Below, piece by piece: positions 35,498-58,187 of a DNA stretch of 64,000 nt; the stretch's first letter is position 1; every line of letters begins with the position of its first letter. The stretch spans positions 1,542-65,541 of the forward strand of contig URCA01000015.1 of the NCBI GenBank assembly GCA_900546265.1, read 5' to 3'. Position numbers and translations under genes: made by a program. The stretch comes from an uncultured Oscillospiraceae bacterium. GTDB taxonomy: Bacteria; Bacillota; Clostridia; Oscillospirales; Acutalibacteraceae. The notes beneath the pieces were generated by a model that was given only the letters and a program-made list of their open reading frames with translations, was not told the DNA's origin and did not search any database.

Positions 35498-37264
35498 TCA
35501 GTCAAAGACCAAACGGCCGTCACTGCCGATCTCGGGTGCCTTGACGAGCTGCCCGTTTTTGAGGGCCGCGTTGTAAGCGGTTGTGATGGCATCCCCTTTG
35601 TATGTCGTGTTCATGGTCTTCACATAACTACTCCAGGCACTGTTGAACGGCTCACTATACTGCTTGAACGTGTCCCACCAGGTATCGGAGGTCTTGGTGA
35701 AATCCGGCTTGGCCGAGGCATAGCTGGTATTGCGTTCCATCAGCGTAAACTCTGTCTGCATTTTGTCGCAAAGGCCCTCAAAATATTCCGTATAGGTTTT
35801 CTCAGTTAACATATAGTAATCGGGATAGCGGTTATACGTTTTGGCCTTTTCCATCGCCTCAATAATTTTGCCGCTGTTGGTCTGCATTTCGTTGTAATAG
35901 TTGGAGGTGATATTGGTGAATAGGCGCAGCGCGCTGAATGTGTCTTTCCCGTCAATCGTCCAGTTCACAGGATGCTCCCCTTCCTGTGCGCCCATCAGGC
36001 TTTCCCGGACAGTTTTCTCGTTATTTTCGCTCTTTTTATAGTGGATCCCCTCTACTCCATAGGTCAATAAATCCACAGCCTCGTCGCTGAGCAGCCAATC
36101 CATCAGTTTCAATGCATCGCCGCGTTTTTTCTCCGACATATCCGCACTCAGGCAAACCGACGTCCAAAAGTTCGGATGACCTTGAATACCGTACTCCCCG
36201 TCAATCCCCTTGGGCGGCGCAAACATGGCAATCTTCTCCGCTGCTTCTTCATAAGACCAGTTTTTTTGGGTAACAAAATAGGAGAGCACCAGGTTGAGCA
36301 TGGCCTGATTTTCGATGATACCCACTTGTCCATTGCCGAAAGCCGCCAGCTTGTCTGAGGCATCATTGGTTGCCCAGCTGGGATCCATAAATCCGTTTGT
36401 CAGTAGATTGTTGACAAAATTAACAATGTACTTATTGCCGTCACTGGTGCCGCTGAATTCATATTTGCCGTCCTTATTGTTATCCTCCATGATGCGGTAT
36501 CCGCCGCCCGCGACATACAGCCAGTTGTCGGAATACATATCCACCGTTGAGGTATAGCCATAGGTATCGTCTTTCCCATTGCCGTCCGGGTCATACAACG
36601 TGAAGGCGCGGCAGAGACGGTAAAACTCCATCAGGTCCTGCGGCACGGTGAATTTGTATGTCTCATATATTGCGTCCGTCATAGAGCTCTCGTTACTGAT
36701 GACGCCATCTTTCACCAGGATTGACGCCAGCTTTTTATTCAGATTTTCGATCCAGTCCATACGAATAAACATGGTGTGTTCCTGCGTCCAGACCGTGGGA
36801 ATCATATACATTTTACCGTTCATGAAATCAATGTTCTTGCTTAAGAACGAATATTTCTGAAGCTGCCGGTAGATGTTTGGATATTCCTTTTCCGAAACGT
36901 AGTCCGATATCGGGAGCAGCGCCTCGGCCTTAATCATCTTATTGAACAGCACCGGGGTTTCCGCCGTCCGGGAGATGAACATATCAGGGAGATTACCTGT
37001 ATTAAAATACTGCTGCAGCTTGGTGTCCGCCTGACCGCCGCCTGCAATCAGGCAGGTAAAATCCACGCCGCAAAGCTCCATGTATTTCTTATATAAATCC
37101 GATTTTCTCTTAATAGCGGTGTTGACGCCGCTGAGATCTGAATAGAACAGCGTCAGCGCTCCATCCTCGCCGGCCTCTTTCGAGCTGTTGCAGCCAGTCA
37201 GCGCCGTAAGGCACATGCCCAGCGCCAGTATGATGGCGGCGCCTTTTCTGAATAATTTTTTCAT
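35498..37264 (-). CDS. ABC transporter solute-binding lipoprotein (large LplA-like sugar-binding protein)
   Basis: 588 aa. Lipobox LTALTGC-NSS. It is followed by two permease genes. Confidence 0.8.
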   Translation of the reverse strand: MKKLFRKGAAIILALGMCLTALTGCNSSKEAGEDGALTLFYSDLSGVNTAIKRKSDLYKKYMELCGVDFTCLIAGGGQADTKLQQYFNTGNLPDMFISRTAETPVLFNKMIKAEALLPISDYVSEKEYPNIYRQLQKYSFLSKNIDFMNGKMYMIPTVWTQEHTMFIRMDWIENLNKKLASILVKDGVISNESSMTDAIYETYKFTVPQDLMEFYRLCRAFTLYDPDGNGKDDTYGYTSTVDMYSDNWLYVAGGGYRIMEDNNKDGKYEFSGTSDGNKYIVNFVNNLLTNGFMDPSWATNDASDKLAAFGNGQVGIIENQAMLNLVLSYFVTQKNWSYEEAAEKIAMFAPPKGIDGEYGIQGHPNFWTSVCLSADMSEKKRGDALKLMDWLLSDEAVDLLTYGVEGIHYKKSENNEKTVRESLMGAQEGEHPVNWTIDGKDTFSALRLFTNITSNYYNEMQTNSGKIIEAMEKAKTYNRYPDYYMLTEKTYTEYFEGLCDKMQTEFTLMERNTSYASAKPDFTKTSDTWWDTFKQYSEPFNSAWSSYVKTMNTTYKGDAITTAYNAALKNGQLVKAPEIGSDGRLVFD

Positions 37265-37284: not shown

Positions 37285-38163
37285 TCAGGATTTAACAGCG
37301 CCCAGCATAACGCCCTGTACAAAATATTTTTGAAGCGCAATAAAAACGATGGCAATCGGCAGCAGGGAAATCACAATGATAGCGCCGTTTCGGCCCTCAG
37401 CGAATACCTTAGTCATATCGATGATACCGGCCTCGAGATTATCTCCTGTGGCGCTCAGTGCCATTTTCACCTGATAGGCCAGCGGGTACATACGTTCATC
37501 GCTTAACAGCACCATCGGCCAGTACCAGTCGTTCCATTTTCCCACGATAGTAAACACGGAAATGGTTGCGAGTCCCGCCTTAGACAGCGGCAGCAGGAAC
37601 TGAAAAAGGCAACGGAAATCGTTGGCACCGTCAATACGGCAGGATTCCATTACGCTGCGGGGAACCTGAGCGAAGAAGTTGCGTAGCAAAATAATGTTGA
37701 ACGCGGATATGCCGAAGGGGAGGATAAGTCCCAGATAGCTGTCGGTCAGGTGAAGCGAACGGAGGGTCAGCACCGTGGGAATCAGACCGCCTCCGAAAAA
37801 CATCGTAATCAGCAATAGCGTAAAGAAGATTTTCTTGCCCGGCAGGTTTTCCTTGATCAGGGCGTATGCGCCGAAAGACAGCAGGAGCATGGAATACAGA
37901 GTACTGGTGATTGTCACGACAATGGAAATAAGAAAAGAACGCCCGATGCTATCCTGAAACAAAATGAGCTTATACATTTCCAAGTTGAAATGGTGGGGAA
38001 ACACCAGAAACCGGGCATTCAGAAAATCGTCCCGGGAGGAAACCGACAGCAAAACCTCGTACAGCAACGGAAATAAACACGCTGCCATGAATAAAAACAG
38101 GAACAGGTAAATCAGCACTCTCCACACGGTCATGGGAGTCTTGGACAATGCTTTCTTTCTCAT
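37285..38163 (-). CDS. Carbohydrate ABC transporter permease (LplC/MalG-like)
   Basis: EAA loop MESCRIDGANDFRCLFQFLLPL. ATGA-type overlap with the upstream gene. Confidence 0.9.
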   Translation of the reverse strand: MRKKALSKTPMTVWRVLIYLFLFLFMAACLFPLLYEVLLSVSSRDDFLNARFLVFPHHFNLEMYKLILFQDSIGRSFLISIVVTITSTLYSMLLLSFGAYALIKENLPGKKIFFTLLLITMFFGGGLIPTVLTLRSLHLTDSYLGLILPFGISAFNIILLRNFFAQVPRSVMESCRIDGANDFRCLFQFLLPLSKAGLATISVFTIVGKWNDWYWPMVLLSDERMYPLAYQVKMALSATGDNLEAGIIDMTKVFAEGRNGAIIVISLLPIAIVFIALQKYFVQGVMLGAVKS

Positions 38164-39092
38164 GATTCAGCCACCTCGTACATGCCGTAACCGTTGATCT
38201 TTTTCACGACGGCATTTGCCGACAACAGCAAGACAAAATTGATCACCGACTTGAACAGGCCGATGGCCGTGCCCCGTTCATAGTACCCGTTTTCAAAGCC
38301 GGTGCGCATCACCAGCGTATCAATGACATCCGCCACACTGTAAACCGTAGGATTATATATGTTGTAGATGGCATCAAAGTTGGCGTTGAGGATATTGCCA
38401 ACCTGCATGGTAAACATGATAATGATTATCGGCATAATACAAGGCAGGGTGACGTATCGGGCCATGCCCCACCGTTTGCAGCCATCTATGGATGCCGCCT
38501 CATAGAGGGTCGGGTCGATATTAGTAATCGCCGCCGTATAGATAATTGTACCCCAACCTGCATCCTTGATGATACTGGAAATGAGCAAAACCGGATAAAA
38601 CAGGTGTTCGCTGGTGAGGAATTCCACTCGTTGCATTCCCAGAGAGGCAAGAATGTTGTTAAACGTACCTGTGGAGAAATTTAGCAGCGAATTCAGGATG
38701 CCCGCCAAAATGACCCAAGAGATAAAATTCGGGAAATAGATACAGGTTTGGATAAGTCGTTTATACGGCTTGTGGCACACCTCATTGAGTAGCAAAGCCA
38801 GCAAAATGGGGGCCGGAAAGCAAAAAATGAGGCTCAGTGTGCTGATGACGATGGTGTTACGGAACGCACGGGCAAAATCCGGCAGTGCGAATATGTCCAA
38901 AAAATGCTGGAAGCCCACCCATTCGCTGCCGAAAATCCCCTGAGCCGGCTGGTATTCCTTGAACGCCAGCACCAGACCGTACATAGGGTAGTACGAAAAC
39001 AGAAGCAACACAACCAAAACCGGCAGCATCATAAGATACACCTGCTTGTTCTGCCAAACGGACACCTTGAGCCTTTTCCAATCGGTTTTCAT
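38160..39092 (-). CDS. Sugar ABC transporter permease (LplB/MalF-like)
   Basis: EAA loop YEAASIDGCKRWGMARYVTLPC. GGGGGAGAG RBS. Confidence 0.9.
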   Translation of the reverse strand: MKTDWKRLKVSVWQNKQVYLMMLPVLVVLLLFSYYPMYGLVLAFKEYQPAQGIFGSEWVGFQHFLDIFALPDFARAFRNTIVISTLSLIFCFPAPILLALLLNEVCHKPYKRLIQTCIYFPNFISWVILAGILNSLLNFSTGTFNNILASLGMQRVEFLTSEHLFYPVLLISSIIKDAGWGTIIYTAAITNIDPTLYEAASIDGCKRWGMARYVTLPCIMPIIIIMFTMQVGNILNANFDAIYNIYNPTVYSVADVIDTLVMRTGFENGYYERGTAIGLFKSVINFVLLLSANAVVKKINGYGMYEVAES

Positions 39093-39096: not shown

Positions 39097-40008
39097 TCAC
39101 TCTCCCCCTGCGTTTATATACTTGTTCTGTGCTTTCTCTGCGGCAAACGCCTCGCGGGGATCGGTCCTGGCATATGTATCCCGGAATGCCGACGCCGTCA
39201 TACCCGTGCTTTTTTTGAAATTTCGTGCGAACAGCTTGGTATCCTCAAACCCCGACAGCCTGGCGATATCCGCCACCCTCCGGTTTGTCTGCACCAGCAA
39301 ATCGCAGGCGTTTTTAATACGGATAAAGGTCAGATATTGCTTTGGAGACATTCCCATATCCCGCTTGAATACGCGGTTTAGATAGCTTAAGCTAAGGTTC
39401 AGATTTACACAAATGTCCTCGACGGTAAAATGCGGGTTCATATAGGAGCAACCCACTAGGATCACCGTTTGGTTAACGTAATGCCCTTTATTGAAATCGT
39501 TTTCCGTCTGAAATCCCGCTTTCAAGCGATCAAATAGCAGATAGAACCAGCCCAGTATTTCATAACTGGCCCTAGGCCTCTCCAGATAGGCCCGGTTCAT
39601 CCGCCCAAACAGATCCACGATTTCCGTATGATGACCCTTGCACCGCCCATACACACGTTCCCGGCTCAAGCCGATTTCCTCCAGCATTTCATAGGCTGAC
39701 TGTCCTGCGAGAACCACCCAGTAGTAGCAAAAAGGATCCTCCTTGTCCGCCTTATAACGGATGGCTTCTTTTGGGGGAATGATAAATAAATCCCCCTTGA
39801 CCAGTTCATAACTCTGCCCGCGGTAATACAGCCGGCCTTTCCCACTGACGATGTAGTGAAGCGAGACATAGGTCCGGTTCGGATCTGCCGGCACCTCTTC
39901 TTTTTTATACGGGGAGCACATTTCCCTCAGACACTCGAGGATTTCCGGACGCGAATAGTTGTAAAGAGACCATGTATAAAATTTTTCAATGCCGTTACTC
40001 TTTTCCAT
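39097..40008 (-). CDS. AraC-family transcriptional regulator (cupin sensor + dual HTH)
   Basis: 303 aa. The C-terminal HTH is ...SLSYLNRVFKRDMGMSPKQYLTFIRIKNACDLL...IARLSGFEDTKLFARNFKKSTGMTASAFR. Confidence 0.85.
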   Translation of the reverse strand: MEKSNGIEKFYTWSLYNYSRPEILECLREMCSPYKKEEVPADPNRTYVSLHYIVSGKGRLYYRGQSYELVKGDLFIIPPKEAIRYKADKEDPFCYYWVVLAGQSAYEMLEEIGLSRERVYGRCKGHHTEIVDLFGRMNRAYLERPRASYEILGWFYLLFDRLKAGFQTENDFNKGHYVNQTVILVGCSYMNPHFTVEDICVNLNLSLSYLNRVFKRDMGMSPKQYLTFIRIKNACDLLVQTNRRVADIARLSGFEDTKLFARNFKKSTGMTASAFRDTYARTDPREAFAAEKAQNKYINAGGE

Positions 40009-40029: not shown

Positions 40030-43000
40030 TTATGGCCGACGGCGCTTCTCCAAGTAAGCCAGCGGCTGCTGCACACCGCTTGAATACGCGATCCCTGTAA
40101 CTGGAAATCCGGTATCGCTCGCCCCGTTGGCGAATATACCGAACGTTTTCACCGCGTCCGCGTTCCAAACCGTCGCTTCATCGAAATCCACATTGTGAAC
40201 CACCTCTTTATAAGAGGTGCTCCGGCTGATCGCTGTCCACGTGCCATTCACGCCCACATGCAGCGTATCGCCAAGACTGACCACCGACAACGCCAGTTCC
40301 TCCTGCCAAGGGATAGCCGTCACATAATCCCGATCGGAACGGTCATCCCAGCCCGTTCCCCGCGTCAGGCGTATCTTGACCGTGTCGTCATCGGCCCGGA
40401 GCAACAGGATTTTGACTGGGCTGGAAGCGCCTTCCGTATAATAGTAAATACCGCTGGTCGATTCGCCCTGATCCATACGCTTGACCTGAAGCGTCACATA
40501 AAAGTCTTTCAGCGCCACACCCGCGAACTGCTCATAATCGTTGTTTTGCAGAATATAGTTTCCGTTCGTCGGTGCATGGCCGCTGGCAAACTTCACCTCA
40601 ATGAACCGTGGCGTTTCCGAAACAGTCAGCTGGCCATCCTTTACCGTGGCTTTAAACTGCACCGATACAAAGCGCGCGCTTTCGAGTACCAGGGTGTGCG
40701 ATCCATCCGGGAGCCGCAAGCCGAACGTTCCGTCGGAAGCCACGGCACTTGTCTCGCCCTCGAGCCATCGCACCGTAACCGCGTCTCCGTCTGCATACAG
40801 ACCTTCCGCGCAGCCATAGCTTCCGCCCACCTCGGCAAACCGAGTATACACCAAGACTTCCATAGCCTCCGCAGCCGTAAACATATAAGTGTTCTCCGCC
40901 TTCGCTGGTATCCGGCGCCCCGCATAGGTGACGATAACCTCACTCCCGGGTTCCATGCCGGAGAGCGTCAGCGTTACCGAATCCGTACCCTTGAGCGCTT
41001 TGGGTTTATCCAGAACTCCTATCACCTTTTCATCGTCGCTGCGGACGGTCAGATTCACATAGCAGGCCTCCTGCGTACCGGCCGCATATCTCACATCCGC
41101 AATAGGGAAGCCCCTATCGCTGGCACCGTTGGCGAACAGTCCAAAGGTTTTCACCGCATCTGCGTTCCATACCGTCGCTTCATCGAAATCCGTATTGTGA
41201 ACCACCTGTGTATAGGAAGTATTCCGACCGATAGCTGTCCATTGCCCCTCGACTCCTACATACAGCGTATCTCCCAAGCTGAGAACCGACAGGGTCAGTT
41301 CCTCCTGCCAAGGGATAGCTGTCGTGTAATCCCGGTCGGAACGATCGTCCCAGCCCGTACCCCGCGTCAAACGTATCTTGACTGTTCCGTCATCGGCCCG
41401 AAGCAGAAGGATTTTGACCGGGCTGGACGCGCCTTCCGTATAGTAGTAAATGCCGCCGGTCGATTCGCCCTGATCCATGCGCTTGACACGGGTCGTGGCA
41501 AAGAAGTCTTTCAGTGCTATGCCTGCGAACGCCTCATAGTCCCCGTTTTGCAGAGTGACGGCACTGTTTGACGTCTCCTTGCCGTCGGTGAATTTCAGCT
41601 CCTTGAACAGACATCTCTCTGGCACCGTGACGACGCCGCTTTCCACGGTAACCGCCAAACGAACCGGTGCAAACCGTGCGCTGGTCAGTGCGAGGCTGTG
41701 GGTGCCATCGGGGAGCCGGATATGGAATTTTCCGTCCGCCGCCGTCCCGGTGATACCCGCCGTCTCCGAGCAGATCGTAACCACGTCACCGTCCGCATAC
41801 AGGCCCGGCGCGTAGCCGTAGGTACCTGTTACCGAATAGGTGCGCGCTATGGTCACGACCACCTCACCGGATTCCGCCGCCGTAAAGGTATAGCGATTCT
41901 CCGCGTCAGGCGTCAGAATCCGTCCTGCGAATGTGACGACGGCCGCGCAACTCTCGTCCATACCGGAGAGCGTCAGCATCACCGGCTCCGTCCCTTTCAG
42001 AACTCTGGTTTTATCTAATGTCCCCGTTACGCTTTCGTCATCGCAGCGGACCGTCAAATCGGCGTAGCACGCATTTTTGATTTCCTGCGTGCCGGCATTG
42101 TAGGCAATATCTGTAATCGGGAAGCCGATCTCGCTGGCGCCGTTGGCGAACACGCCAAAGATTTTCAGCGTATTCGCGTCCCACACCGTCTTTTCATCAA
42201 ATTCCACGTTGTGGACCACCTGCGTATATGGGGTATCACGGCTGATGGCCATCCAATTGCCATCGACACCCACATACAGCGTGTCGCCGATGCTGAGCAC
42301 CGACAGAGTCATCTCCTCCCGCCAGGGAATATTCGTTGCATAATCCCGGTCGGAACGGTCGTCCCAGCCTTTTCCTCTCGTCAAACGTACTTTCACGTTG
42401 CCGTCGTCAGCCCGGAGCGGCAGGATCTTCACCGGGCTTGCCGCCCTCTCGACATAGTAATAGACGCCTCCGGTCGATTCACCCTGATCCATGCGCCGAA
42501 CACGGGCTGTGACGAAAAAGTCCGTCAAGGCTACCCCGGCGAACGGCTCGTATTGATCGTTGAGCAGTGTGACGGCGCCGTTTTTCGTCTCCAGACCGCT
42601 GCCAAACATCAGCTCTTCGAACATTGACACCTCCGGCATATTGACAGCGCCGCCGTTCACGGCAACCTCAAGGTGAACCGGTGCAAACCGTGCGCTGGTC
42701 AGTACGAGGCTGTGGGTGCCATCGGGGAGCCGGATACGGAATTTCCCGTCCGCCGCTGTCCCGATGATACCCGCCGTCTCCGAACGAATGGTAACCGTGT
42801 CGCCGTGCGCATACAGGCCCTGGGCATATATATAGCGGCCCTCCACCGGATAGACACGCGTGATGCTCACTTCAACAACACCTGACTTCGCAGCTGTAAA
42901 GGTGTAGGTGTTGTCCCCGGTTGCGGTCAGCATATGTCCGCCGAATGAGACGGTAGCCGCGCGGGTGTCATCCAAACCGGAGAGCGTCAACGTCACAGGT

Positions 43001-46000
43001 TCAGTCCCTTTGAGTACGCTGGTTTTGTCCAGATGCACCGTCACGCCTTCATCCTCGCAGCGGACCGTCAAATCGGCCATGCACGCATCCCGAGTTCCCG
43101 GTTGATATGCGATCCCGGTAATAGGGAAACCGACCGCGCTGTCACCATTGGCGAACACGCCAAAGGATTTTTCCGCGCCCGCGTTCCAAACCGTCGCCTC
43201 ATCGAAATCCACATTGTGCACCACCACTTTGTGTGGGGTGTCCGGGCCGATAGCCGTCCATTGATCGTCGATGCCCACATACAGCGTGTTACCGACGCTA
43301 AGTACCGAGAGACAGGCTTCCTCCTGCCAGGGGATTGCGGTCGTATAGTCGCGATCCGACCGGTCGTCCCAGTCCAGTCCCCTGGTCAGGCGGATTTTAA
43401 ACATATTGTTGTCCGCTTTTAGCAGAAGCACTTTCACCGGGCTGTTCCCCCCGGCGTAGTAGTAAATACCGCTGGTCGCCTCGCCCTGATCCATGCGCTG
43501 CACACGGGCCGTGGCGAAGAAATCCTTCATGGACACTCCGGCAAACAGTTCATAGCTCTTGGGGGGCAGCGTGATAGCGCTGCCTTTTGTTGTATGACCA
43601 CTGACGAATTTCAAATCTTTAAACTGCTTTTGTTCCTCTATATGGACATTGTCGGCCTTAACAACAATCTCGAATCGCACCGGCGCGAACCGCTCACTAG
43701 TCAGCACTAGGCTGTGGGTACCGTCGGGCAGCCGGATGCGGAATTTCCCGTCGCCCGCCGTCCCGTACAAAGCTGCTGTTTCCGAATAAATACCGACCTG
43801 ATCGCCCGTCGTATACAGACCTGCATCATAACCGTAGCTGCCCTCTACCAAGTAGACGCGGGTAAAAGTTATTGTCACCGTACCGGAGCGGGCGGGGATA
43901 AAGGTATATTTACCGTTCTCATCAGGCGCTATCCGCCGTCCCTCGAAAGTTACCTCAGCCATATAGCGATCATCCACGCCGTTTAGGGTCAGGGTTACCG
44001 GCTCGGTACCTTTCAGCACGTTGGCTTTGTTCAAAACGACTTTTACATTTTTGTCGGCGCAATCCACCGTCAGCGTCGCATAACAGGCGTTCTTAACCTC
44101 CTGTGTGCCAGCCTTGTAGGCGATATCCGTTACCGGAAAGCCCTCGTCGCTCTCACCGTTCGCATACAAGCCGAAAGTTTTTTCCGCTTCTGCATTCCAC
44201 ACAGTCGCTGGATCAAATGCTACGTTTTTGACTACTTCTTTATAAGGGGTGTCCCGGTTGATGGCTGTCCATTTTTCATCAATACCCACATACAGCGTGT
44301 CGCCGTAACTAAGTACCGAAAGCTTAAAAACTTCTTTCCAGGGGATTGCGGTGGCATAATCCCGGTCGGATCGATCGTCCCAGCCTACGCCTCTCATCAG
44401 GCGGATCTTTGTGTTGCCGTCATCGGCCCGAAGCAGCAACACCTTGACGGGACTGGCCCCGCCGGCGTAGAAAAAATCGCCGCTGGTCGCTTCTCCCTGA
44501 TCCATGCGCCGCACGGTGGCCGTGACGAAGAAGTTTTTCAGCGAGACACCGGAAAACAGTTCATAATCGCCGTTTCGCAGTGTATAGTTTCCCCCGTTCG
44601 GCACTTTCCCCACCGCAAACTTCACTTGGGAGAATCGCTTCATATCCGGGATGTCCACCCGGCCGCCGCGCACGGTGACATCGAAACGTATCGATTCAAA
44701 GCGGGCGCTGGTCAAGACGAGGGTATGCCGTCCATCGGGCAGGCGTATACAAAATTTGCCATCGGCCGCCGTTCCATAAATTCCGGTGGTTTGGGAGCGC
44801 ACCATGACTGTATCGCCCTTTGCGTACAGGTCGTCCGCATAGCCGTAACCGCCGGTTACGGGATAGACACGGGTAAGGGACACTTTTACACTTCCCGATT
44901 CCGCGGGTGTAAAAGTATATGTATGATTTCCGCTGGCTGGAATCTGCCGTCCCGCATAGGTGACAGTCACCATATAGCGGTCGTCCGCGCCCTTAAGCGT
45001 CAGTACTACCGGTTCGGTGCCTTTGAGAACTTTCGTCTTATTTAAAACCGCCTGAACGTCTTTATTGGAGCAATCCACCTTGAGCGTCGCATAACAGGCG
45101 TTCCTGACCTCCTGTGTACCGGCCGTGTACGCAATCTCTGTAATCGGAAATCCTACGCCGCTTTCACCGTTGGCAAATACGCCGAAGGTTTTCTCCGCTC
45201 CCGCGTTCCAAACCGTCGCCTCGTCGAAATCCGCGTTTTTGACAACTGGCGTATAGGCTGTTTTCCGATCTATGGCCAGCCAATTGTCATCAATTCCCAC
45301 ATACAGGGTGTCGTCGAAGCTGAACACCGACAGCCGGTATACCTCTTTCCATGGTACAGCGGTCGTATAATCCCGATCGGACCGATCGTCCCAGCCTTTT
45401 CCCCTCGTCAGACGGATTTTTACCGTGTCGTTCTCCGCCTTGAGCAATAGAATTTTGACCGGACTGACCGAGCCTTGCGTATAGTAGTATATGCCACTGG
45501 TGGATTCACCCTTGTCCATACGCTCGACACGCATCGTGGCATAAAAATTCTTCAGCGATACGCCTGCAAACAACTCGTAATTGCCATTTTGCAGCCGATA
45601 GCGGCCATCAGCCGGTACATTGCCGCTCTCGAACTTAATTTGGGTAAATCGGTTGTTTCCGGTCACGCGCACATCCTTTTCCCGCACCGTCACATCAAAG
45701 CCTATTGCTTCAAAACGAGCGCTGGTCAGGATCACGCTGTGCGTTCCCGCGGGCAGGCGAATACGAAACTTCCCGTTCGCTGCCGTGCCGAACAATCCCG
45801 CGGTTTTCGACTGCACCGTAACCTCATCGCCATTTGCATACAGGCCGTCCGCATAGCCGTAATTCCCCTCCACAAGATATGCACGGGTGAAAGTTATCGT
45901 CACATCCCCGGATTCTGTTGCCTTGAACGTATAGGTATTCAGACCGCTGGCGGAAATCTGCCGTCCTGCATAGGTCACCGTGGGTACTAGACTTTCCTCG

Positions 46001-46725
46001 GCCGGCGTCACCGTCAGGGTGACCTCTTGGCCCATCAGGACGGTCGTATCGCTTAAAACCGCCGTGCCGCCGTCTGCGCAGCGGATTGTCAAATTCACCT
46101 GACACTCCTTCAGTTTCTCCTCAACCTGCGCACCGCCGGTCACATTTTCATGTGTTGAGGATCCCACACCGCTGTTTCCAATGCCATATAGCTTTTCTGC
46201 TTTGGTAAAAAAATCATAGTCTCCCTCGGACGAGACCGGCGTGGTACTTCCATCAATGACTGTCCAGTGTCCGTCGATTTGCAGATAATATATGCCATTG
46301 TGGAAAAGTACCTGAATGGTCGCCTGGTGATTCGCGCCCTCAAAAGGAATTTCCGTAGCGTAGGCTCGGTTTGCTTCGCCATCCTTCGTCCGTCCCACCA
46401 TATACACAGTGGCAACTGTAGCGGTAGCGTCCGCTTTGTCGACGAACAAATACGTTTCTCCCGCATCTGTGCGGAAATATATGGTGCCGGCCCGACGTCC
46501 ACGCTCATCCGAACGATAATTCGACAGCACAGTTGTCTTCACCCAAAAATTGGCACTCGGCTCTTCGTTAAGTTGCAGATAATCCCACGCCTGCGTAAAC
46601 GAGGCCGATGCACCTTTCAATACCTTTTTTACAACCGTGGATCTGGGAGTCCCACACGCCGCTGCAAACATACAAAGCACCAGACAAGATAACGCCAGCA
46701 AGAAGTGCCGTTTATAGTTTTTCAT
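40030..46725 (-). CDS. Giant surface lipoprotein (2231 aa): N-terminal LamG-like domain + six ~337-aa repeats
   Basis: ATG 46725 lies 7 nt after GGAGGAA; the track TTG at 46740 lies in the RBS. MKNYKRHFLLALSCLVLCMFAAAC-GT is a lipobox-like signal. Each repeat has an Ig-like part (VLKGTEPVTLTL...VTYAGRQI...YTFT), a CarboxypepD_reg-like part (GTAADGKFRIRLPDGTHSLVLTSARF) and a LamG/ConA-like part (RMDQGESTSGIYYY...WDDRSDRDY...GDTLYVGVD). Confidence 0.8.
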   Translation of the reverse strand: MKNYKRHFLLALSCLVLCMFAAACGTPRSTVVKKVLKGASASFTQAWDYLQLNEEPSANFWVKTTVLSNYRSDERGRRAGTIYFRTDAGETYLFVDKADATATVATVYMVGRTKDGEANRAYATEIPFEGANHQATIQVLFHNGIYYLQIDGHWTVIDGSTTPVSSEGDYDFFTKAEKLYGIGNSGVGSSTHENVTGGAQVEEKLKECQVNLTIRCADGGTAVLSDTTVLMGQEVTLTVTPAEESLVPTVTYAGRQISASGLNTYTFKATESGDVTITFTRAYLVEGNYGYADGLYANGDEVTVQSKTAGLFGTAANGKFRIRLPAGTHSVILTSARFEAIGFDVTVREKDVRVTGNNRFTQIKFESGNVPADGRYRLQNGNYELFAGVSLKNFYATMRVERMDKGESTSGIYYYTQGSVSPVKILLLKAENDTVKIRLTRGKGWDDRSDRDYTTAVPWKEVYRLSVFSFDDTLYVGIDDNWLAIDRKTAYTPVVKNADFDEATVWNAGAEKTFGVFANGESGVGFPITEIAYTAGTQEVRNACYATLKVDCSNKDVQAVLNKTKVLKGTEPVVLTLKGADDRYMVTVTYAGRQIPASGNHTYTFTPAESGSVKVSLTRVYPVTGGYGYADDLYAKGDTVMVRSQTTGIYGTAADGKFCIRLPDGRHTLVLTSARFESIRFDVTVRGGRVDIPDMKRFSQVKFAVGKVPNGGNYTLRNGDYELFSGVSLKNFFVTATVRRMDQGEATSGDFFYAGGASPVKVLLLRADDGNTKIRLMRGVGWDDRSDRDYATAIPWKEVFKLSVLSYGDTLYVGIDEKWTAINRDTPYKEVVKNVAFDPATVWNAEAEKTFGLYANGESDEGFPVTDIAYKAGTQEVKNACYATLTVDCADKNVKVVLNKANVLKGTEPVTLTLNGVDDRYMAEVTFEGRRIAPDENGKYTFIPARSGTVTITFTRVYLVEGSYGYDAGLYTTGDQVGIYSETAALYGTAGDGKFRIRLPDGTHSLVLTSERFAPVRFEIVVKADNVHIEEQKQFKDLKFVSGHTTKGSAITLPPKSYELFAGVSMKDFFATARVQRMDQGEATSGIYYYAGGNSPVKVLLLKADNNMFKIRLTRGLDWDDRSDRDYTTAIPWQEEACLSVLSVGNTLYVGIDDQWTAIGPDTPHKVVVHNVDFDEATVWNAGAEKSFGVFANGDSAVGFPITGIAYQPGTRDACMADLTVRCEDEGVTVHLDKTSVLKGTEPVTLTLSGLDDTRAATVSFGGHMLTATGDNTYTFTAAKSGVVEVSITRVYPVEGRYIYAQGLYAHGDTVTIRSETAGIIGTAADGKFRIRLPDGTHSLVLTSARFAPVHLEVAVNGGAVNMPEVSMFEELMFGSGLETKNGAVTLLNDQYEPFAGVALTDFFVTARVRRMDQGESTGGVYYYVERAASPVKILPLRADDGNVKVRLTRGKGWDDRSDRDYATNIPWREEMTLSVLSIGDTLYVGVDGNWMAISRDTPYTQVVHNVEFDEKTVWDANTLKIFGVFANGASEIGFPITDIAYNAGTQEIKNACYADLTVRCDDESVTGTLDKTRVLKGTEPVMLTLSGMDESCAAVVTFAGRILTPDAENRYTFTAAESGEVVVTIARTYSVTGTYGYAPGLYADGDVVTICSETAGITGTAADGKFHIRLPDGTHSLALTSARFAPVRLAVTVESGVVTVPERCLFKELKFTDGKETSNSAVTLQNGDYEAFAGIALKDFFATTRVKRMDQGESTGGIYYYTEGASSPVKILLLRADDGTVKIRLTRGTGWDDRSDRDYTTAIPWQEELTLSVLSLGDTLYVGVEGQWTAIGRNTSYTQVVHNTDFDEATVWNADAVKTFGLFANGASDRGFPIADVRYAAGTQEACYVNLTVRSDDEKVIGVLDKPKALKGTDSVTLTLSGMEPGSEVIVTYAGRRIPAKAENTYMFTAAEAMEVLVYTRFAEVGGSYGCAEGLYADGDAVTVRWLEGETSAVASDGTFGLRLPDGSHTLVLESARFVSVQFKATVKDGQLTVSETPRFIEVKFASGHAPTNGNYILQNNDYEQFAGVALKDFYVTLQVKRMDQGESTSGIYYYTEGASSPVKILLLRADDDTVKIRLTRGTGWDDRSDRDYVTAIPWQEELALSVVSLGDTLHVGVNGTWTAISRSTSYKEVVHNVDFDEATVWNADAVKTFGIFANGASDTGFPVTGIAYSSGVQQPLAYLEKRRRP
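40033..46098 (-). repeat. Six tandem coding repeats, period about 1.01 kb
   Basis: Protein units start at VNLTIRC / ATLKVDC / ATLTVDC / ADLTVRC / ADLTVRC / VNLTVRS. DNA similarity is locally very high (see the finding at 41661-42820). Confidence 0.85.
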
Positions 46726-46800
46726 ACATCGTTCCTCCAATTCATATGGTAGCCTTACGAATAACTTACGTCTATTTTTACCAATGAACCTTATGTTTCA

Positions 46801-46829
46801 ATTGTATCCACTCCATTTTACCTTGTCAA
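46801..46829 (-). promoter_or_regulatory. Near-consensus sigma-70 promoter for the giant lipoprotein gene
   Basis: On the minus strand: TTGACA (46829-46824), a 17-nt spacer, then TACAAT (46806-46801), about 75 nt upstream of the ATG. Confidence 0.55.
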
Positions 46830-47026: not shown

Positions 47027-47080
47027 ATTATACATAGCGGAAAACTTCCCGTCATGTAATTGCAAATAGAGGTTATGAGA

Positions 47081-49363
47081 ATGAATATGCTGTTTCCCGC
47101 CATACAGGCCGACGAGAAAAATGTAACCTACGCGTTTCGTCTGACGATCTCACTTCCTCCTGACAGCCGAATCCGCCTGGCGGCTTCCAACGCTTGTATG
47201 CTTTTTCAGGACGGTGACCTGCTGTTCCGAGGTCCCATGCGCACCGCTCATGGACACAGCCTGCTGTCTGAAATCCCACTGGCTTCCCGTAAGGATTCCA
47301 CGCTGGTTGTAGAGGTGGCCTATTACGGCATCAATGGCTTTTACTGTGTGGAAGAGCCGCCCTTTTTTATATGTACCATTCTAGTCGGAGATAAACCGAT
47401 AGCGAATACCGAAGATTTTCAGGTGTTTCGTTTGGACGACCGAGTGCGGAAAGTCCCTCGATACAGCTTTCAGCGACCCTTTTCTGAAAGCTACCGCATG
47501 GAGAATGATCGCCGCGCACTGTATGTAGGAGAGAATGTGCCCTATCCGCAGGATACTGCCGTGGAGGTTCGTGGAAACACCCTGCATACCAGCGACTTAT
47601 CTCTTCCGATTCTGAACTTAACAGAGCTAACCAATGCGGTGGAACAGGGTACGCTATGTAAAAACCAGCATCCATACCATTTTCGAGACCGCTGCATTAC
47701 GAAAATCGGTGATAAACTCAAGGGATATAGTCTGGACGAACTGGAGGAATTTCCGGTCGAGGAACTGGCGGAAATCGATTTTCATCCCTATGCAGAGGTA
47801 CTAAAAAAGGATGTGTATGAGAATGAATACCTGCTTTTAGACGCGGGTATGAATTATACATCGTTTATTGGAGCCGAACTATGTGCCGAGACCGATGTCA
47901 TTGTCTTTTTTACATTTGATGAAATCCTCTGGCATGAGGCTTTAGATGATATTCACCTACGCACTTTTTTTAACAGCAAAGCGCTTCCTCTGAGTTTTTC
48001 ACGGCTAGAATGCTGCAACGTCATCAAATATAGCCTAAAAAAAGGCGAGTACCGCCTCTGCTCCTTTGAGCCATATACATTCCGCTATTTAAAAATTGCA
48101 GTAAAGGGCCGGATACGTCTAAAACGCGTGTATCATATCCCCTATGAAAATCCCAGCATCCCAAAAGACATATTTTGTACCGATCGACCAGAGTTAAACC
48201 AAATATTCGAGGCCGGTGTGCGAACCTTTGCGCAAAATGCCATCGACGTGCTTACCGATTGCCCGTCGCGAGAACGAGCTGGCTGGCTCTGTGACAGCTT
48301 TTTTACCGCACAGGCAGAAGCATTGCTGACAGGTTGCAATCGGGTGGAAAGGAATCTCCTGGAGAGTTATCGGCTTGCCCCTCCGCTGCCTGAACTTCCT
48401 GCTTCCATGCCACCTATGTGTTACCCGGCCGATCACAACGATGGCCAGTATATTCCCAACTGGGCTATGTTTCTGATCATTGAGTTGGAGGATTACCAAA
48501 GGCGAACGGGCGACGAGGAACTGATCAACGCCTTTGGGGAAAAAATCCGAAGCCTGTTGGACTGGCTGGAGTCCTATGAAAACGAGTACGGCTTGCTGGA
48601 GAATCTGCCTGGCTGGGTATTTGTAGAGTGGAGTAAATGCGCAGACTTTGTTCAGGACGTCAATTTTCCCACTAATATGCTCTACTATCGGGCTCTGTTC
48701 TGCGCCTCTCGGCTGTACGGCGAGGAAGTCTATCGACAGCGCGCCGACAATCTCCGTGCCGTCATTCGCCGCCTGTCGTTCAACGGCCGTTTTTTTGAGG
48801 ATAATCTCCTTAGGAAGAATGGACGGCTCGTGGCGACGGGAAACATTACAGAAACTTGCCAATATTACGCATTCCGGTTTGGGATCGCAACCAAGGACGA
48901 GGATCCCGTGCTTTATCAAACCATGGTGGAACAATTCGGTCCGCTGCGTTCTTCATATGTGCATACCGATATTTTCCCATCCAACGCATTCATCGGCAAT
49001 TTTCTGCGCTATGACTGGCTCAGCCGTTCGGATGAGCGTAAAATCCTGTTAGCGGAATGCCAGGCGTATTTTCTGCGTATGGCCGATCGTACCATGACGC
49101 TGTGGGAAAACAATGAGGCGACCGCCAGCTGTGCACATGGCTTTGCGTCCTATTTGACCGTACTGCTTGCACGCGCCGTTTTTGGATATTGGGGGTTCGA
49201 TCCAGTGAGCAAAACCGTATATTTGACCGAACCCGATTCGTCCATATGCGGAACCGCACGCTTTCCCATAGCGGGACAGACGTTGGAAATTATTCTGGAG
49301 AGAGGTGTTCGCTCGATTATTCTGCCCGATGGTTACCAAACAGGCCGTCCTACCCTACCATAA
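47081..49363 (+). CDS. GH78-like (alpha/alpha)6 six-hairpin glycosidase (alpha-L-rhamnosidase family), cytoplasmic
   Basis: DCPSRERAGWLCDSFF resembles the GH78 DCPxR(D)ERxGWxGD motif. About 760 aa with no signal peptide. The start is probably ATG 47081 (AGAGG 8 nt upstream); the track start is TTG 47060. Confidence 0.6.
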   Translation: MNMLFPAIQADEKNVTYAFRLTISLPPDSRIRLAASNACMLFQDGDLLFRGPMRTAHGHSLLSEIPLASRKDSTLVVEVAYYGINGFYCVEEPPFFICTILVGDKPIANTEDFQVFRLDDRVRKVPRYSFQRPFSESYRMENDRRALYVGENVPYPQDTAVEVRGNTLHTSDLSLPILNLTELTNAVEQGTLCKNQHPYHFRDRCITKIGDKLKGYSLDELEEFPVEELAEIDFHPYAEVLKKDVYENEYLLLDAGMNYTSFIGAELCAETDVIVFFTFDEILWHEALDDIHLRTFFNSKALPLSFSRLECCNVIKYSLKKGEYRLCSFEPYTFRYLKIAVKGRIRLKRVYHIPYENPSIPKDIFCTDRPELNQIFEAGVRTFAQNAIDVLTDCPSRERAGWLCDSFFTAQAEALLTGCNRVERNLLESYRLAPPLPELPASMPPMCYPADHNDGQYIPNWAMFLIIELEDYQRRTGDEELINAFGEKIRSLLDWLESYENEYGLLENLPGWVFVEWSKCADFVQDVNFPTNMLYYRALFCASRLYGEEVYRQRADNLRAVIRRLSFNGRFFEDNLLRKNGRLVATGNITETCQYYAFRFGIATKDEDPVLYQTMVEQFGPLRSSYVHTDIFPSNAFIGNFLRYDWLSRSDERKILLAECQAYFLRMADRTMTLWENNEATASCAHGFASYLTVLLARAVFGYWGFDPVSKTVYLTEPDSSICGTARFPIAGQTLEIILERGVRSIILPDGYQTGRPTLP

Positions 49364-49378: not shown

Positions 49379-51571
49379 ATGTTTCAGCTTACAGATAAAC
49401 ATTTGAAGATCGATACGCCGCACACCACCCTGCTGTTTAAGGTGTGTCATAAGGAGATCCAGCCTTACTATACTTACGAGCCGTTTGAGAGCTACCTCAT
49501 GCCGATTCATTATGGCCGGAAGCTCCAGGATGGAGAAGATTTCGACATCCTGTGCAAAAACGAGGCGGGCCGTTTCGCCTCCATTTCCTGCCCTGGAAAC
49601 ACGGACGTTCGGGAACCACTTCTTCTGATTCAAAACGCGGACGGCTCTTATGTCAACGATTTCCGGTTCATGGGTATTCGTGAGGTGGGGGATTATGAAT
49701 CCGATGGTATGCCGAAAGCTCATTCCGTCGCTCAATTGCTGGAAATTCGCTACGTTGACAACCGTACCCAGACGGAATTGTATCAGTATATCGGCTGCTT
49801 TCAAGACACGGATGTCCTAACATCCGCATTCCGACTTGTGAATAAAGGTGAAAATACCATCACCGTGCGCAGATTGATGAGCCTACAATCAGATTTAGTA
49901 GGCGGAGATTACACCGCTTATACTTTCAACGGAGACTGGGGCCATGAACGGATGCGAAAAACGCATCCTCTCAGTATCGGTGTTTTTGTCAACGAATCCC
50001 TCAACGGTATGTCCTCCGCCTTGACCAATCCGTTTATCATGCTGCAACGCAGCCGATATGATGACTGGTACGCCTATAACCTTCTTTTTACCGGAAATCA
50101 CAAGGAGAGCGTGGAACTTAACTATGCCAATAAAACGCGCGTCCTGGTTGGGATGAACGACTTCGCTTTCTCCTGCGAACTGGGTGCCGGAGAGGCGTTC
50201 ACCACACCGCAAGCAGTGCAGGTGTATGCCCCCTCACGGGACGCCATTACCTGTGAGATGCACAAATTTGTTAATCGTCATATTCTGCGCGGTATGTACG
50301 CTCGGGCGGAGCGACCGGTGGTTATCAACAACTGGGAGGCAACCTACTTTGATTTTACCGTTCCAAAAATAGTGGAGCTTGCAAAAAAGGCAAAAAATAT
50401 TGGTGTCGAGCTATTCGTTTTGGATGATGGCTGGTTTTCCACACGCAACAACGATACATCCGGACTCGGTGACTGGTCAGATAACTTAGAGAAAACAGAG
50501 GGGGGCATCCAGGTTCTCGCGGAAAAGATACGAGAAATCGGATTGCAATTCGGCATATGGGTGGAACCGGAAATGGTGAATCCAAACAGTGAGTTGTACC
50601 GTCTTCATCCTGAATGGGCTGTGACTATTGACGGACGCACTCCTATTCAACTGCGCAACCAGTATATTCTCGACTTGGCCAACCCAGAGGTCGTCAACTA
50701 CCTTCTTGAGCAAATCGCAGGGGTTATCGAACGCTGCCGGGCGGACTACATCAAATGGGATTGTAATCGCTTCATGACGGAGTTCTATTCCAGGACACTC
50801 AAAAACCAGGGTATGTTCCTGTATCGCTTTATGCAAGGCTTTTATCGATTAATCGGAACCCTTACCATGCGGTATCCGCAGGTGCTCTTTGAAGGCTGCG
50901 CGGGAGGCGGCGCACGGTATGATTTGGGGCTCATGTGCTTCACTCCGCAGATTTGGACAAGCGACAATACCGACGCGCGGATGCGAACAAAAATTCAGGA
51001 GGGCAGTCTCTACGGCATTCCCCAGAGCGTGATGTCAGCTCATGTGTCCATCGTTCCCAATCATCAGACCGGTAACACCACCCCCTTGGAATCACGATTC
51101 AATGTCGCTGCGGCGGGGATCCTTGGCTACGAATATGATCTGACAAAGGCCTCGGAGGAAGAACTGGCCTGTATGAAAAAACAAATTGCCTTTTACAAGA
51201 AGCATCGTGCCCTGCTGCAATACGGCCAGTACCATTTGATCGATAGCGTTTACGATAACAATTGCGACGGCGTAACGTCTTATATCGTAGTTTCTGAAGA
51301 TAAAAGCGAGGCCATCGCGACAGTAATACAGCACACCTATGAACAGCCGATTCCCGTAAAATTCCACTTGACCGGCCTTGATGACAACTTTCTGTATCAT
51401 ATCTCTATGCGCCAGCAATGCAATATCGACTACATACAGGATTATGTTGTGCGCGGGGATGTACTGAATCACGCCCCCCTGGATTTTGCGCCGCTTGCTT
51501 GGGAACGGGAAAGAGAGCAAAATTCAAACGCCATTTTTTCACGTATGTTTTATATTAAAAAAATTGATTAA
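49379..51571 (+). CDS. GH36 alpha-galactosidase
   Basis: 730 aa with FVLDDGWF, YIKWDCNR, LFEGCAGGGARYD and IWTSDNTDA, the typical GH36 (AgaA/RafA-like) blocks. Confidence 0.9.
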   Translation: MFQLTDKHLKIDTPHTTLLFKVCHKEIQPYYTYEPFESYLMPIHYGRKLQDGEDFDILCKNEAGRFASISCPGNTDVREPLLLIQNADGSYVNDFRFMGIREVGDYESDGMPKAHSVAQLLEIRYVDNRTQTELYQYIGCFQDTDVLTSAFRLVNKGENTITVRRLMSLQSDLVGGDYTAYTFNGDWGHERMRKTHPLSIGVFVNESLNGMSSALTNPFIMLQRSRYDDWYAYNLLFTGNHKESVELNYANKTRVLVGMNDFAFSCELGAGEAFTTPQAVQVYAPSRDAITCEMHKFVNRHILRGMYARAERPVVINNWEATYFDFTVPKIVELAKKAKNIGVELFVLDDGWFSTRNNDTSGLGDWSDNLEKTEGGIQVLAEKIREIGLQFGIWVEPEMVNPNSELYRLHPEWAVTIDGRTPIQLRNQYILDLANPEVVNYLLEQIAGVIERCRADYIKWDCNRFMTEFYSRTLKNQGMFLYRFMQGFYRLIGTLTMRYPQVLFEGCAGGGARYDLGLMCFTPQIWTSDNTDARMRTKIQEGSLYGIPQSVMSAHVSIVPNHQTGNTTPLESRFNVAAAGILGYEYDLTKASEEELACMKKQIAFYKKHRALLQYGQYHLIDSVYDNNCDGVTSYIVVSEDKSEAIATVIQHTYEQPIPVKFHLTGLDDNFLYHISMRQQCNIDYIQDYVVRGDVLNHAPLDFAPLAWEREREQNSNAIFSRMFYIKKID

Positions 51572-51815: not shown

Positions 51816-52076
51816 TCATTTCCTCAGGCAATACTGCGAGCTGCTCCTGGCTCCACTGGCCCGGTTTCGCGGGATACGTTCCACGAAGCCAGCCTGCTCC
51901 AGTTCGGCCAGCGCCCGGTAGACCGTCCGGGTGGAAATATGCAAATCAGCCGCGATGGTAGATACGGATGGATAGCACCGACCGTCTATGGAATTCCGCC
52001 GCTCCCGCAGATACATATACACCGCCACGGCCCGATGAGGCAGATCGTACTCGTAAAGCAGTCGGTTGTATGCCAT
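51816..52076 (-). CDS. Small winged-HTH protein typical of ICE/plasmid modules
   Basis: 86 aa. AGGAGGA RBS. CYPSVSTIAADLHISTRTVYRALAELEQAGFVERI. Confidence 0.6.
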   Translation of the reverse strand: MAYNRLLYEYDLPHRAVAVYMYLRERRNSIDGRCYPSVSTIAADLHISTRTVYRALAELEQAGFVERIPRNRASGARSSSQYCLRK

Positions 52077-52089
52077 CTATCTTGTCCTC

Positions 52090-53827: not shown

Positions 53828-53837
53828 AGAAATCTCC

Positions 53838-54968: not shown

Positions 54969-55010
54969 TGGATCCCTCCCGATAAAAAGAAAAAGCGCGG
55001 TTTCCCGCGC

Positions 55011-57605: not shown

Positions 57606-57688
57606 ATGTTCTCTCCTGGATCTGCGATTACCCTATGAAATTTTCTTTTCTATTTAGCCCGTTCTCTTTATAGTTGACTATTCACTTT

Positions 57689-57709
57689 CCCCTGACACAG
57701 TGTCAGGGG
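57689..57709. promoter_or_regulatory. 21-bp palindrome upstream of the relaxase gene, a candidate oriT inverted repeat or operator
   Basis: CCCCTGACAC-a-GTGTCAGGGG, with a further TGACAC at 57715-57720. It lies about 85-105 nt upstream of the relaxase ATG (57605). Confidence 0.35.
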
Positions 57710-57770
57710 GACTATGACACGATAAAGATACAGCTCACCCTTGGCGGCGGGATCCCGATCTCTGAGGGCA

Positions 57771-57798
57771 TGAAAAAAGCAGAGCCCTAAAGCTCTGC
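57771..57798 (-). terminator. Rho-independent terminator overlapping the PIN gene stop
   Basis: GCAGAGC-tttagg-GCTCTGC on the minus strand, followed by TTTTTTCA. Confidence 0.65.
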
Positions 57799-58185: not shown

Positions 58186-58187
58186 AT

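Follow-up and report, generated by a model that had tools for sequence, protein, structure and literature searches.

A six-unit, 2231-residue lipoprotein heading a sugar-uptake operon of uncultured gut Clostridia: a candidate multivalent surface glycan-binding protein

Non-catalytic proteins that bind glycans at the bacterial surface have precedents in the surface glycan-binding proteins (SGBPs) of Bacteroides (PMC4850273) and in Sas20 (PMC9112005), and Gram-positive polysaccharide utilization loci (gpPULs) are defined by the co-location of a regulator, a carbohydrate transporter and at least one polysaccharide-degrading enzyme (PMC5320581, Sheridan et al. 2016). The capture of polysaccharides at the surface of Gram-positive gut bacteria is far less understood than in Bacteroidetes. 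In the best-studied gpPULs, the substrate is generally captured by carbohydrate-binding modules (CBMs) appended to surface enzymes. By comparison, the operon described here is headed by a separate giant non-catalytic lipoprotein. It lies in a 64,000-nucleotide stretch of DNA (hereafter the window: positions 1,542 to 65,541 of contig URCA01000015.1, assembly GCA_900546265.1) from an uncultured Oscillospiraceae bacterium of the Clostridia, and its first gene, on the - strand at window positions 40030-46725, encodes a protein of 2231 amino acids (aa). On balance, we think it probable, by a modest measure, that this protein is a lipid-anchored, non-catalytic, multivalent surface glycan-binding protein that serves as the capture component of a gpPUL in uncultured gut Clostridia.

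The SGBPs of Bacteroidetes, such as SusE/SusF and SGBP-B of the xyloglucan polysaccharide utilization locus (PUL) (PMC4850273), have in common with the 2231-aa protein an N-terminal lipid (predicted in the latter), a non-catalytic, multi-domain and all-beta build in which Ig-like spacers accompany tandem domains that bind glycans, or here are predicted to do so, and a gene placed within a PUL. They differ from it in that no homology between the two was detected, and in that SGBPs act with SusC/D outer-membrane transporters in Gram-negative bacteria, whereas the 2231-aa protein is Gram-positive, is encoded with an ABC importer, is 3-5 times larger and carries six or seven heads of the concanavalin A (ConA)/LamG type. 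No SusC/D is encoded in the locus and no SusE/F Pfam match is present in the protein, which is an analogue of SusE/F-like SGBPs and not a member of that group. Sas20 and Sas6 of Ruminococcus bromii (PMC9112005; bioRxiv 10.1101/2022.11.20.514607) are also non-catalytic multi-domain glycan binders at the surface of gut Firmicutes, holding polysaccharide beside surface enzymes; they are attached through dockerin-cohesin pairs, use CBM26, CBM74 or novel starch-binding domains and have no long tandem arrays, whereas the 2231-aa protein, which is not homologous to them, has a predicted lipid anchor and a head domain of no named family. Cellulosomal scaffoldins, in turn, are long surface proteins whose tandem beta-sandwich modules organise polysaccharide degradation, but the 2231-aa protein is built from a three-domain repeat unit, and neither it nor its neighbours contain cohesin or dockerin Pfam domains, which sets it apart from the scaffoldins. 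What is known here is the strategy of capturing glycans at the surface; what is new is a head domain not described before, carried in six successive cassettes, together with a different anchor and transporter logic.

The protein begins with a lipobox and a degenerate head domain (D3'), followed by six copies of a three-domain unit (D1-D2-D3), and its gene is preceded by a ribosome-binding site and a promoter-like sequence:

46801-46829, - strand: promoter-like TTGACA-17 nt-TACAAT, 11/12 consensus matches, ~75 nt upstream of the start codon
46734-46738, - strand: putative ribosome-binding site GGAGG, 8 nt ahead of ATG 46725, read from the sequence
46654-46725, - strand: predicted signal peptide and lipobox, aa 1-24, MKNYKRHFLLALSCLVLCMFAAA followed by C (G+LPP pattern match)
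46141-46635, - strand: D3', degenerate head copy, aa ~31-195 (hmmsearch with the D3 profile, domain E 5.6e-11, and alignment)
45091-46101, - strand: unit 1, aa 209-545, Ig-like D1, CarboxypepD_reg-like D2 and ConA-fold D3 (motif, identity, profile)
44080-45090, - strand: unit 2, aa 546-882 (Pfam, motif, identity, profile)
43075-44079, - strand: unit 3, aa 883-1217 (motif, identity, profile)
42061-43074, - strand: unit 4, aa 1218-1555 (Pfam, motif, identity, profile)
41059-42060, - strand: unit 5, aa 1556-1889, the modelled unit (AlphaFold2, Foldseek)
40030-41058, - strand: unit 6, aa 1890-2231, including the stop codon and, just ahead of it, a short basic tail, ..LEKRRRP (motif, identity, profile)

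The repeats were defined by motif positions and MAFFT alignment; Tandem Repeats Finder detected nothing, the period of ~1 kb exceeding its limit. The motif WDDRSDRDY is present in exactly six copies (aa 445, 782, 1119, 1454, 1792 and 2126) spaced 334-338 aa apart, and cutting at a conserved junction yields six units of 334-342 aa with pairwise identities of 52-71% in protein and 60-75% in DNA. The family D3 profile matches the D3 of every unit at E 1e-85 to 1e-90, and the six-fold repeat is therefore far beyond chance. An initial annotation, made by a model from the sequence, had proposed a lipoprotein of six units, each with an Ig-like, a carboxypeptidase-regulatory-like and a LamG/ConA-like part; this architecture is borne out by the six WDDRSDRDY copies, by Pfam for the middle part and by AlphaFold2 and Foldseek for the Ig-like and ConA/LamG parts. 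Two details needed revision. Of the motifs given as recurring in every unit, WDDRSDRDY does so in all six, but RMDQGESTSGIYYY is conserved without being identical across units (variants RMDKGE.., ..EATSGDFFY and ..STGGVYYY). The N-terminal domain, described as LamG-like, is now recognised as a diverged seventh D3 (E 5.6e-11), in which KDGEANRAY stands in place of WDDRSDRDY in the alignment. Units 4 and 5 are 70% identical and the identities of units 1 and 4, 2 and 5, and 3 and 6 are not raised, a pattern on which the duplication of a three-unit block into six was rejected as the origin of the array. A pair of cysteines (C-x7-C) stands at five of the six D3-to-D1 junctions (Cys 208/216, 544/552, 881/889, 1215/1223 and 1553/1561; window ~46078-46104, 45070-45096, 44059-44085, 43057-43083 and 42043-42069) and is kept in orthologues too; it may serve as a disulfide or metal site, making the joint between units stiffer.

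Profile and structure searches on one unit had been suggested as a check, and they returned CarboxypepD_reg by Pfam and an AlphaFold2 model of unit 5 with a pLDDT of 93.4. Pfam detects the middle part alone, as CarboxypepD_reg/CarbopepD_reg_2/PEGA above the gathering score (PF13715, 82.6 bits against a cut-off of 32.2; PF13620, 73 bits against 32.3); these matches fall mid-unit in several units, the best listed stretches being in units 2 and 4, and on this profile evidence D2 is assigned to the CarboxypepD_reg-like/PEGA (transthyretin-like) domains PF13620/PF13715/PF08308. The model of unit 5, built on a 20-unit alignment (pTM 0.80), comprises three all-beta domains, with D1 at residues ~1-62, D2 at ~65-146 and D3 at ~150-330, and D1 is Ig-like by AlphaFold2 and Foldseek. 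D3 (~180 aa) is predicted to be a jelly roll of the ConA/LamG type without a close solved relative: the Foldseek matches in the PDB are weak and generic (E 4e-5 to 1e-3, probability ~1, identity 8-15%, TM <=0.53 relative to the target) and comprise laminin alpha2 LG4-5, neurexin, galectins, GH16 xyloglucanases, a GH43 C-terminal sandwich and PL7. LamG domains coordinate Ca2+ through conserved acidic residues in their loops, and the Ca2+ in turn binds the glycan. These and the neurexin LG and galectin domains (e.g. laminin alpha2 LG4-5, PDB 5ik7/5ik8) are the best structural neighbours of D3, which likewise has an invariant acidic cluster in its loops; it differs from LamG domains in sequence (8-15% identity), in overall fit (TM <=~0.5) and in having no Pfam Laminin_G match at E<=10.

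Sequence comparisons place D3 on its own. Its profile has no match among PDB sequences at E<=10, 16 D3 sequences compared with Pfam at E<=10 found no family apart from two single chance matches, with no Laminin_G among them, and no NCBIfam model matches D3; phmmer against the PDB gave no match for the 2231-aa protein, for D3, or for the 825-aa and 685-aa proteins encoded in the same operon. Because no profile matches at E<=10, D3 falls outside Pfam Laminin_G and the known lectin or CBM sequence families. No database source names the family of the 2231-aa protein and literature searches found no described equivalent, in agreement with the view first taken that the architecture is not that of a described family. 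Within the protein D3 is the most conserved domain (mean identity 65%, against 56% for D2 and 50% for D1), and its invariant residues are mostly charged or aromatic: R-M-D-x-G-E, in a loop between model strands 186-193 and 201-208; W-D-D-R-S-D-R-D-Y, in a loop and strand start at 234-245; and Lys228 and Lys304. In unit-5 numbering, the invariant set comprises Arg194, Asp196, Glu199, Lys228, Trp237, Asp238, Asp239, Arg240, Asp242, Asp244, Tyr245 and Lys304. WDDRSDRDY persists in one D3 with only ~30% identity elsewhere, but the membrane-proximal D3' has lost it. As the initial annotation had it, no catalytic motif is apparent: the 2231-aa protein contains no catalytic Pfam domain, and a regular-expression search found no GH16-type ExDxxE (or ExDxE) anywhere in it, the ground on which GH16-like catalysis was rejected.

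The open reading frame extends over 40030-46740, and a translation start at ATG 46725 is plausible given the ribosome-binding site ahead of it. The N-terminus, MKNYKRHFLLALSCLVLCMFAAAC, conforms to the Gram-positive lipoprotein pattern G+LPP of Sutcliffe and Harrington and contains the sole hydrophobic segment of the protein, which, through its lipobox and cysteine, is classed among the predicted bacterial lipoproteins (putative Lgt/Lsp substrates), as had been claimed. The pattern is found in nine of 13 orthologues and relatives checked, including three of four close-family orthologues; P0003 fails the strict form. There is no LPXTG-like motif and the C-terminus (..AYLEKRRRP) is without a hydrophobic segment, and sortase anchoring, with membership among MSCRAMM adhesins, was rejected for these reasons. 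The near-consensus promoter reported at the outset exists as TTGACA-17-TACAAT, with 11 of 12 consensus positions and the top promoter match within 19.5 kb, but promoter-like matches as a whole are not enriched (22, against 18.5 +/- 4.7 in shuffles), and the site at 46801-46829 is to be read as a consensus pattern match only. An inverted-repeat scan around it gave a single 10-nt pair, and the idea of a phase-variable invertible promoter switch was dropped.

The six-fold repeat might in principle have been created by collapse or expansion during assembly, and relatives do show repeat oddities (an in-frame unit deletion in P0028; units 2 and 3 of P0003 97% identical). For the window gene, we regard this explanation as having practically no chance of being right. 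The units differ by 25-40% in DNA, which is too divergent for mis-assembly, and contig L004, from another sample, is colinear with the window from 51942 to 30030 in a single 21,914-nt high-scoring segment pair with 99.18% identity and no net indel; this alignment covers the whole giant gene and operon and is exactly as long as the stretch it spans in the query and in the subject. An exact-sequence look-up of the window's 2231-aa protein returned no record, and the representative of its 98% cluster was used in its place; in this cluster, several members from independent assemblies have 2231 aa and one 2234, and one of these sequences is recorded on 36 contigs. Finally, the orthologue P0002 (2247 aa, 60% identical) also has six units, of which units 1, 2 and 5 match their positional counterparts best, with units 4 and 5 ~70% identical in both proteins; six units with positional matches imply that the six-unit form predates the split of the two lineages.

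The protein is rare, and it belongs to a larger superfamily of modular lipoproteins that occur in uncultured Clostridia and in assemblies of gut metagenomes. Five clusters, none of them named, emerged when 5.8 billion proteins were searched through a word index. Relatives were found in 3 of 185,579 species-representative genomes, all three being three-unit forms in metagenome-assembled genomes of uncultured Clostridia, two with titles that suggest a human gut origin (Hadza; HGM), and the six-unit gene is in none of the species-representative genomes; 241 million metagenome records contained six loci. Three other close lineages carry three-unit proteins of about 1230 aa. The unit profile, run exhaustively with HMMER against 1.84 billion representatives, returned 331 matches at E<=1e-3, among which the WDDRSDRDY head is confined to the close family. 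About 20 further proteins, large and mostly with an N-terminal lipobox, match all three domains, and these ~20 repeat the D1-D2 cassette (Y-x-Y-A-x-G-L-Y-x-x-G-D-x-V-T-V ...) with different D3 heads; other matches cover D1 or D2 only. The six distant relatives scanned contain no catalytic Pfam domain.

Several observations on these relatives concern the arrangement of their parts. In P0029 (five units, L010 671-6055) each unit has a different D3 head while D1-D2 stay similar, and relatives P0032, P0034, P0036, P0040, P0044, P0064 and P0066 are listed alongside it; stalk cassettes that are otherwise alike appear to have exchanged their heads. Another subgroup has a conserved ~450-aa N-terminal region ('VDGKLDE..W') ahead of the cassettes. 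P0028 (781 aa) resembles P0005 with an in-frame deletion that joins the D1 of unit 2, through a shared AGVYEFTA, to the D3 of unit 3; P0030 (287 aa) has a xylose-isomerase-like N-terminus fused to the last D3, which suggests a chimeric contig; and the P0003/P0026 oddity is the 97% identity of units 2 and 3 in P0003. Each of the oddities of P0028, P0030 and P0003 has one of two origins: repeats that truly recombined or underwent gene conversion, or an effect of assembly in the lineage concerned.

The giant gene heads a nine-gene operon, in which eight genes follow on the same strand with gaps of -4 to 44 nt, and two glycosidase genes lie on its other side, divergently transcribed:

39097-40008, - strand: AraC-family regulator with cupin sensor and helix-turn-helix (HTH), 21 nt past the giant-gene stop (Pfam AraC_binding and HTH_18)
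37285-39092, - strand: two ABC permeases, 310 and 292 aa (BPD_transp_1)
35498-37264, - strand: 588-aa lipoprotein solute-binding protein (SBP_bac_1 and lipobox)
32976-35453, - strand: 825-aa surface protein of unassigned family, with two ~375-aa halves (63% identical) between a signal peptide and a C-terminal membrane anchor
32422-32979, - strand: 185-aa lipoprotein of unassigned family, with weak similarity to a subdomain of the 825-aa protein
30339-32396, - strand: 685-aa lipoprotein, a divergent GH39-like member of clan GH-A with C-terminal beta-sandwiches
28984-30327, - strand: 447-aa secreted GDSL/SGNH esterase with an extra N-terminal domain (Lipase_GDSL_2 and signal sequence)
47060-49363, + strand: cytoplasmic GH78-like (alpha/alpha)6 glycosidase, divergently transcribed (Bac_rhamnosid6H E 4e-20; RhaB 2okx E 2.5e-13)
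49379-51571, + strand: cytoplasmic GH36 alpha-galactosidase of AgaA/AgaB type (Melibiase E 9e-130; PDB AgaA/AgaB E ~1e-144)

The operon, with its ABC importer, unknown proteins, GH-A enzyme (here recognised as a divergent GH39-like one) and esterase, and the gene's own AraC regulator downstream are thus as first annotated. The GH36 and GH78-like proteins have no signal peptide, and in the window lineage their genes are divergent neighbours and not operon members. Since an AraC regulator, two permeases with a binding protein, a GH39-like enzyme, a GDSL esterase, a GH36 and a GH78-like enzyme are all present, the locus qualifies as a gpPUL, sharing with described gpPULs (PMC5320581) the combination of a regulator, an ABC carbohydrate importer and glycoside hydrolases (GH). 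All five close lineages and the five-unit P0029 locus keep the core order (giant gene, AraC gene, permeases, binding protein and three proteins of unknown family), with the AraC gene at the same position in all related loci. The end of the locus is an esterase gene in the close lineages and a GH4 gene instead in P0029; upstream of the giant gene, four of the five close lineages carry the GH78-like gene, GH36 occupying that place on the P0002 contig, and GH36 is seen in four of the six locus lineages (window/L004, P0002, P0004 and P0029), the other two contigs or flanks ending before it. An AraC regulator and a GH43 enzyme accompany each of three distant superfamily members, which are built from the same module and lie in other loci; two of these loci also have an ABC importer, and GH4 or GH123 occur in individual loci.

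The 825-aa protein has no Pfam, NCBIfam or PDB match. Proteins of its type are doubled (821-825 aa, with ~375-aa halves 63% identical) only in the two six-unit loci and single (434-448 aa) in the three-unit and five-unit loci (genes at window 32976-35453, - strand; L005 18322-19626; L008 14502-16967; L009 18255-19601; L010 10648-11985), and this doubling looks about as old as the unit duplications in the giant protein. The 447-aa esterase has weak matches to acetylxylan and glucomannan deacetylases. The 685-aa lipoprotein is clearly a member of clan GH-A: its AlphaFold2 model (pLDDT 85.8) has GH39, iduronidase, GH30 and GH86 structures as top Foldseek matches (E 1e-21 to 1e-23), and Glu191 (WNEPD) and Glu333 (TEF) are invariant in its family. 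Seven of 14 family members match PF01229 (best E 2.4e-8), which the window member itself misses, and the family profile matches GH39 xylosidases of the PDB at E ~3e-10 over half the barrel; the protein may represent a divergent GH39 subfamily or a sister family. This clade comprises about 15 clusters, all unnamed, and the window member has two extra C-terminal beta-sandwich domains.

These enzymes bear on the nature of the ligand, which is most likely a dietary or microbial polysaccharide destined for the adjacent sugar-uptake operon and probably bears alpha-galactose. The presence of GH36, of GH4 in the P0029 locus and of the GH39-like, GH78-like and esterase proteins points to an alpha-galactosylated glycan, maybe with rhamnose and ester groups as well. 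A lead is offered by the gum-arabic (arabinogalactan-protein) system of Bifidobacterium longum (PMC8367640, PMC8939339, PMC10688797), which pairs a surface GH39 enzyme (GAfase) with a GH36 alpha-galactosidase, cytoplasmic as here, and a sugar importer, and which is a precedent for the release and import of oligosaccharides from alpha-Gal side chains. It differs from the window locus in that the GH39-like enzyme here is very divergent and misses the Pfam GH39 model, and in that no giant binding protein is reported in the abstracts of those three publications.

A mechanism for capture can be proposed on this basis. The 19 beta domains of the lipid-anchored 2231-aa protein would extend through the wall, with the D1-D2 pairs acting as rigid spacers, or a stalk, that project the six D3 heads through and beyond it. 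Transthyretin-like and Cna-B-like repeats serve as stalks in Gram-positive surface proteins. The six heads would bind repeated epitopes of one polysaccharide with avidity, possibly via Ca2+ and an aromatic site in the manner of LamG domains, and the polymer held at the surface would be de-esterified by the GDSL esterase and cut by the GH39-like enzyme into oligosaccharides. These would be imported by the 588-aa binding protein and the ABC permeases and finished in the cytoplasm by the GH36 and GH78-like enzymes, while the AraC regulator would sense a breakdown product and induce the operon.

We infer polyvalent glycan binding from this body of evidence, in which the conserved synteny and the contexts of the distant relatives strengthen the case; the best fold neighbours of D3 include glycan-binding LamG and galectin domains, and the operon itself provides for extracellular catalysis, with a clan GH-A enzyme at the surface and an esterase. 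Other observations weigh against such a role. The likeness of D3 to lectins is that of a generic jelly roll only (TM <=0.53, 8-15% identity, best E 4e-5), the same Foldseek list includes enzymes (GH16, PL7 and the C-terminal domain of GH43), each of the two conserved D3 loops may sit at a different end of the sandwich, and the true binders, or else partners, could be the surface proteins of 825 and 185 aa. The enzyme matches raise the question of whether D3 is a new catalytic ConA-like domain, either a GH or a polysaccharide lyase (PL), and the whole protein a six-headed, surface-tethered depolymerase. GH16 NXG1 (E 9e-5) and PL7 FlAlyA (E 7e-4) are among the Foldseek matches, and the invariant set (Arg, Asp, Glu, Lys, Tyr) is unusually rich in charge, as in the sites of lyases and hydrolases; but no ExDxxE of GH16 or similar motif is present, no sequence relation to enzyme families appears at E<=10, and the conserved acidic residues lie in loops and strand starts, not along a cleft strand. 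Six tandem catalytic domains would also be unusual, and the operon already has a surface GH39-like enzyme and an esterase, so we consider a catalytic D3 unlikely.

A role as a scaffold, in which the units would dock the 825-aa, 185-aa, GH39-like and esterase proteins into a surface complex in the manner of a scaffoldin, appears improbable to us as well. It would suit the repetitive architecture and the doubling of the 825-aa partner in the two six-unit loci alone, against a single copy in three-unit loci, the 63% identity of its halves indicating an age comparable to that of the unit duplications. Stoichiometry does not track, however, in the five-unit P0029 locus, which has a single-copy partner; the partners have no common module, except for the weak similarity between the 185-aa and 825-aa proteins, and the loci of distant relatives have different partners. 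Scaffolding of the cohesin/dockerin kind was rejected, with no such domains found and no module common to the partners. The size, the repetition, the transthyretin/Cna-B-like stalk domains and the lectin-fold heads are also what would be displayed by an adhesin that targets host mucus, epithelial glycans, other cells or a biofilm matrix, with nutrient acquisition not its main task, and the gut origin and the conjugation genes that adjoin the locus, where adhesins are common cargo, speak for it. Yet in every lineage the giant gene opens a conserved operon for sugar import and glycosidases that has an AraC sensor of its own, relatives likewise lie within glycosidase and ABC loci, and no LPXTG, collagen-binding or other adhesin family signature is found. 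We accordingly give the adhesin explanation little credence, and a host or mucus adhesin is a less likely branch than the glycan binder.

The sugar locus is bracketed by mobile-element genes (window 26424-28395 and 51942-63462), with a sigma70_r4 protein and a truncated large serine recombinase on one flank and a split type IV coupling protein, Toprim/DUF3991, a MobL relaxase with Sel1 repeats, a PIN protein and a VirB4-like ATPase on the other. The GC content drops from ~0.58-0.62 (1-24 kb) to ~0.48-0.53 in the sugar locus, and the homology with L004 ends at window 51942, followed by IS21; the locus may be the cargo of a possibly decayed integrative conjugative element. Window 1-24443 contains more glycan-use genes, most of them without a family assignment: a GH38 alpha-mannosidase, a DUF5696 protein, an NHL/Yip1 membrane protein, ABC permeases, an unusually long solute-binding protein of 944 aa, two secreted paralogues of 812 and 821 aa that share repeats, and a 539-aa lipoprotein.

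Returning to the 2231-aa protein as a multivalent glycan catcher, a broader proposal, which we advance tentatively, is that D3 founds a new carbohydrate-binding family, possibly of Ca2+-dependent lectins, and that giant lipoproteins of tandem cassettes form an undescribed, recurrent class of glycan-capture proteins at the surface of Firmicutes, a Gram-positive counterpart of SGBPs with heads swapped per glycan; the target of the present locus may be an alpha-galactose-containing polysaccharide. If the protein is such a catcher, a new binding-domain family would be defined, the three-domain cassette at the head of AraC/ABC/glycosidase operons would serve as a marker for capture proteins in uncultured Clostridia, and a compact operon with at least four unannotated surface families (D3, the divergent GH39-like, the 825-aa and the 185-aa proteins) would be flagged. 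D3 could in addition serve as a glycan probe. The impact would be that of a new family and architecture inside a known strategy, with no principle overturned.

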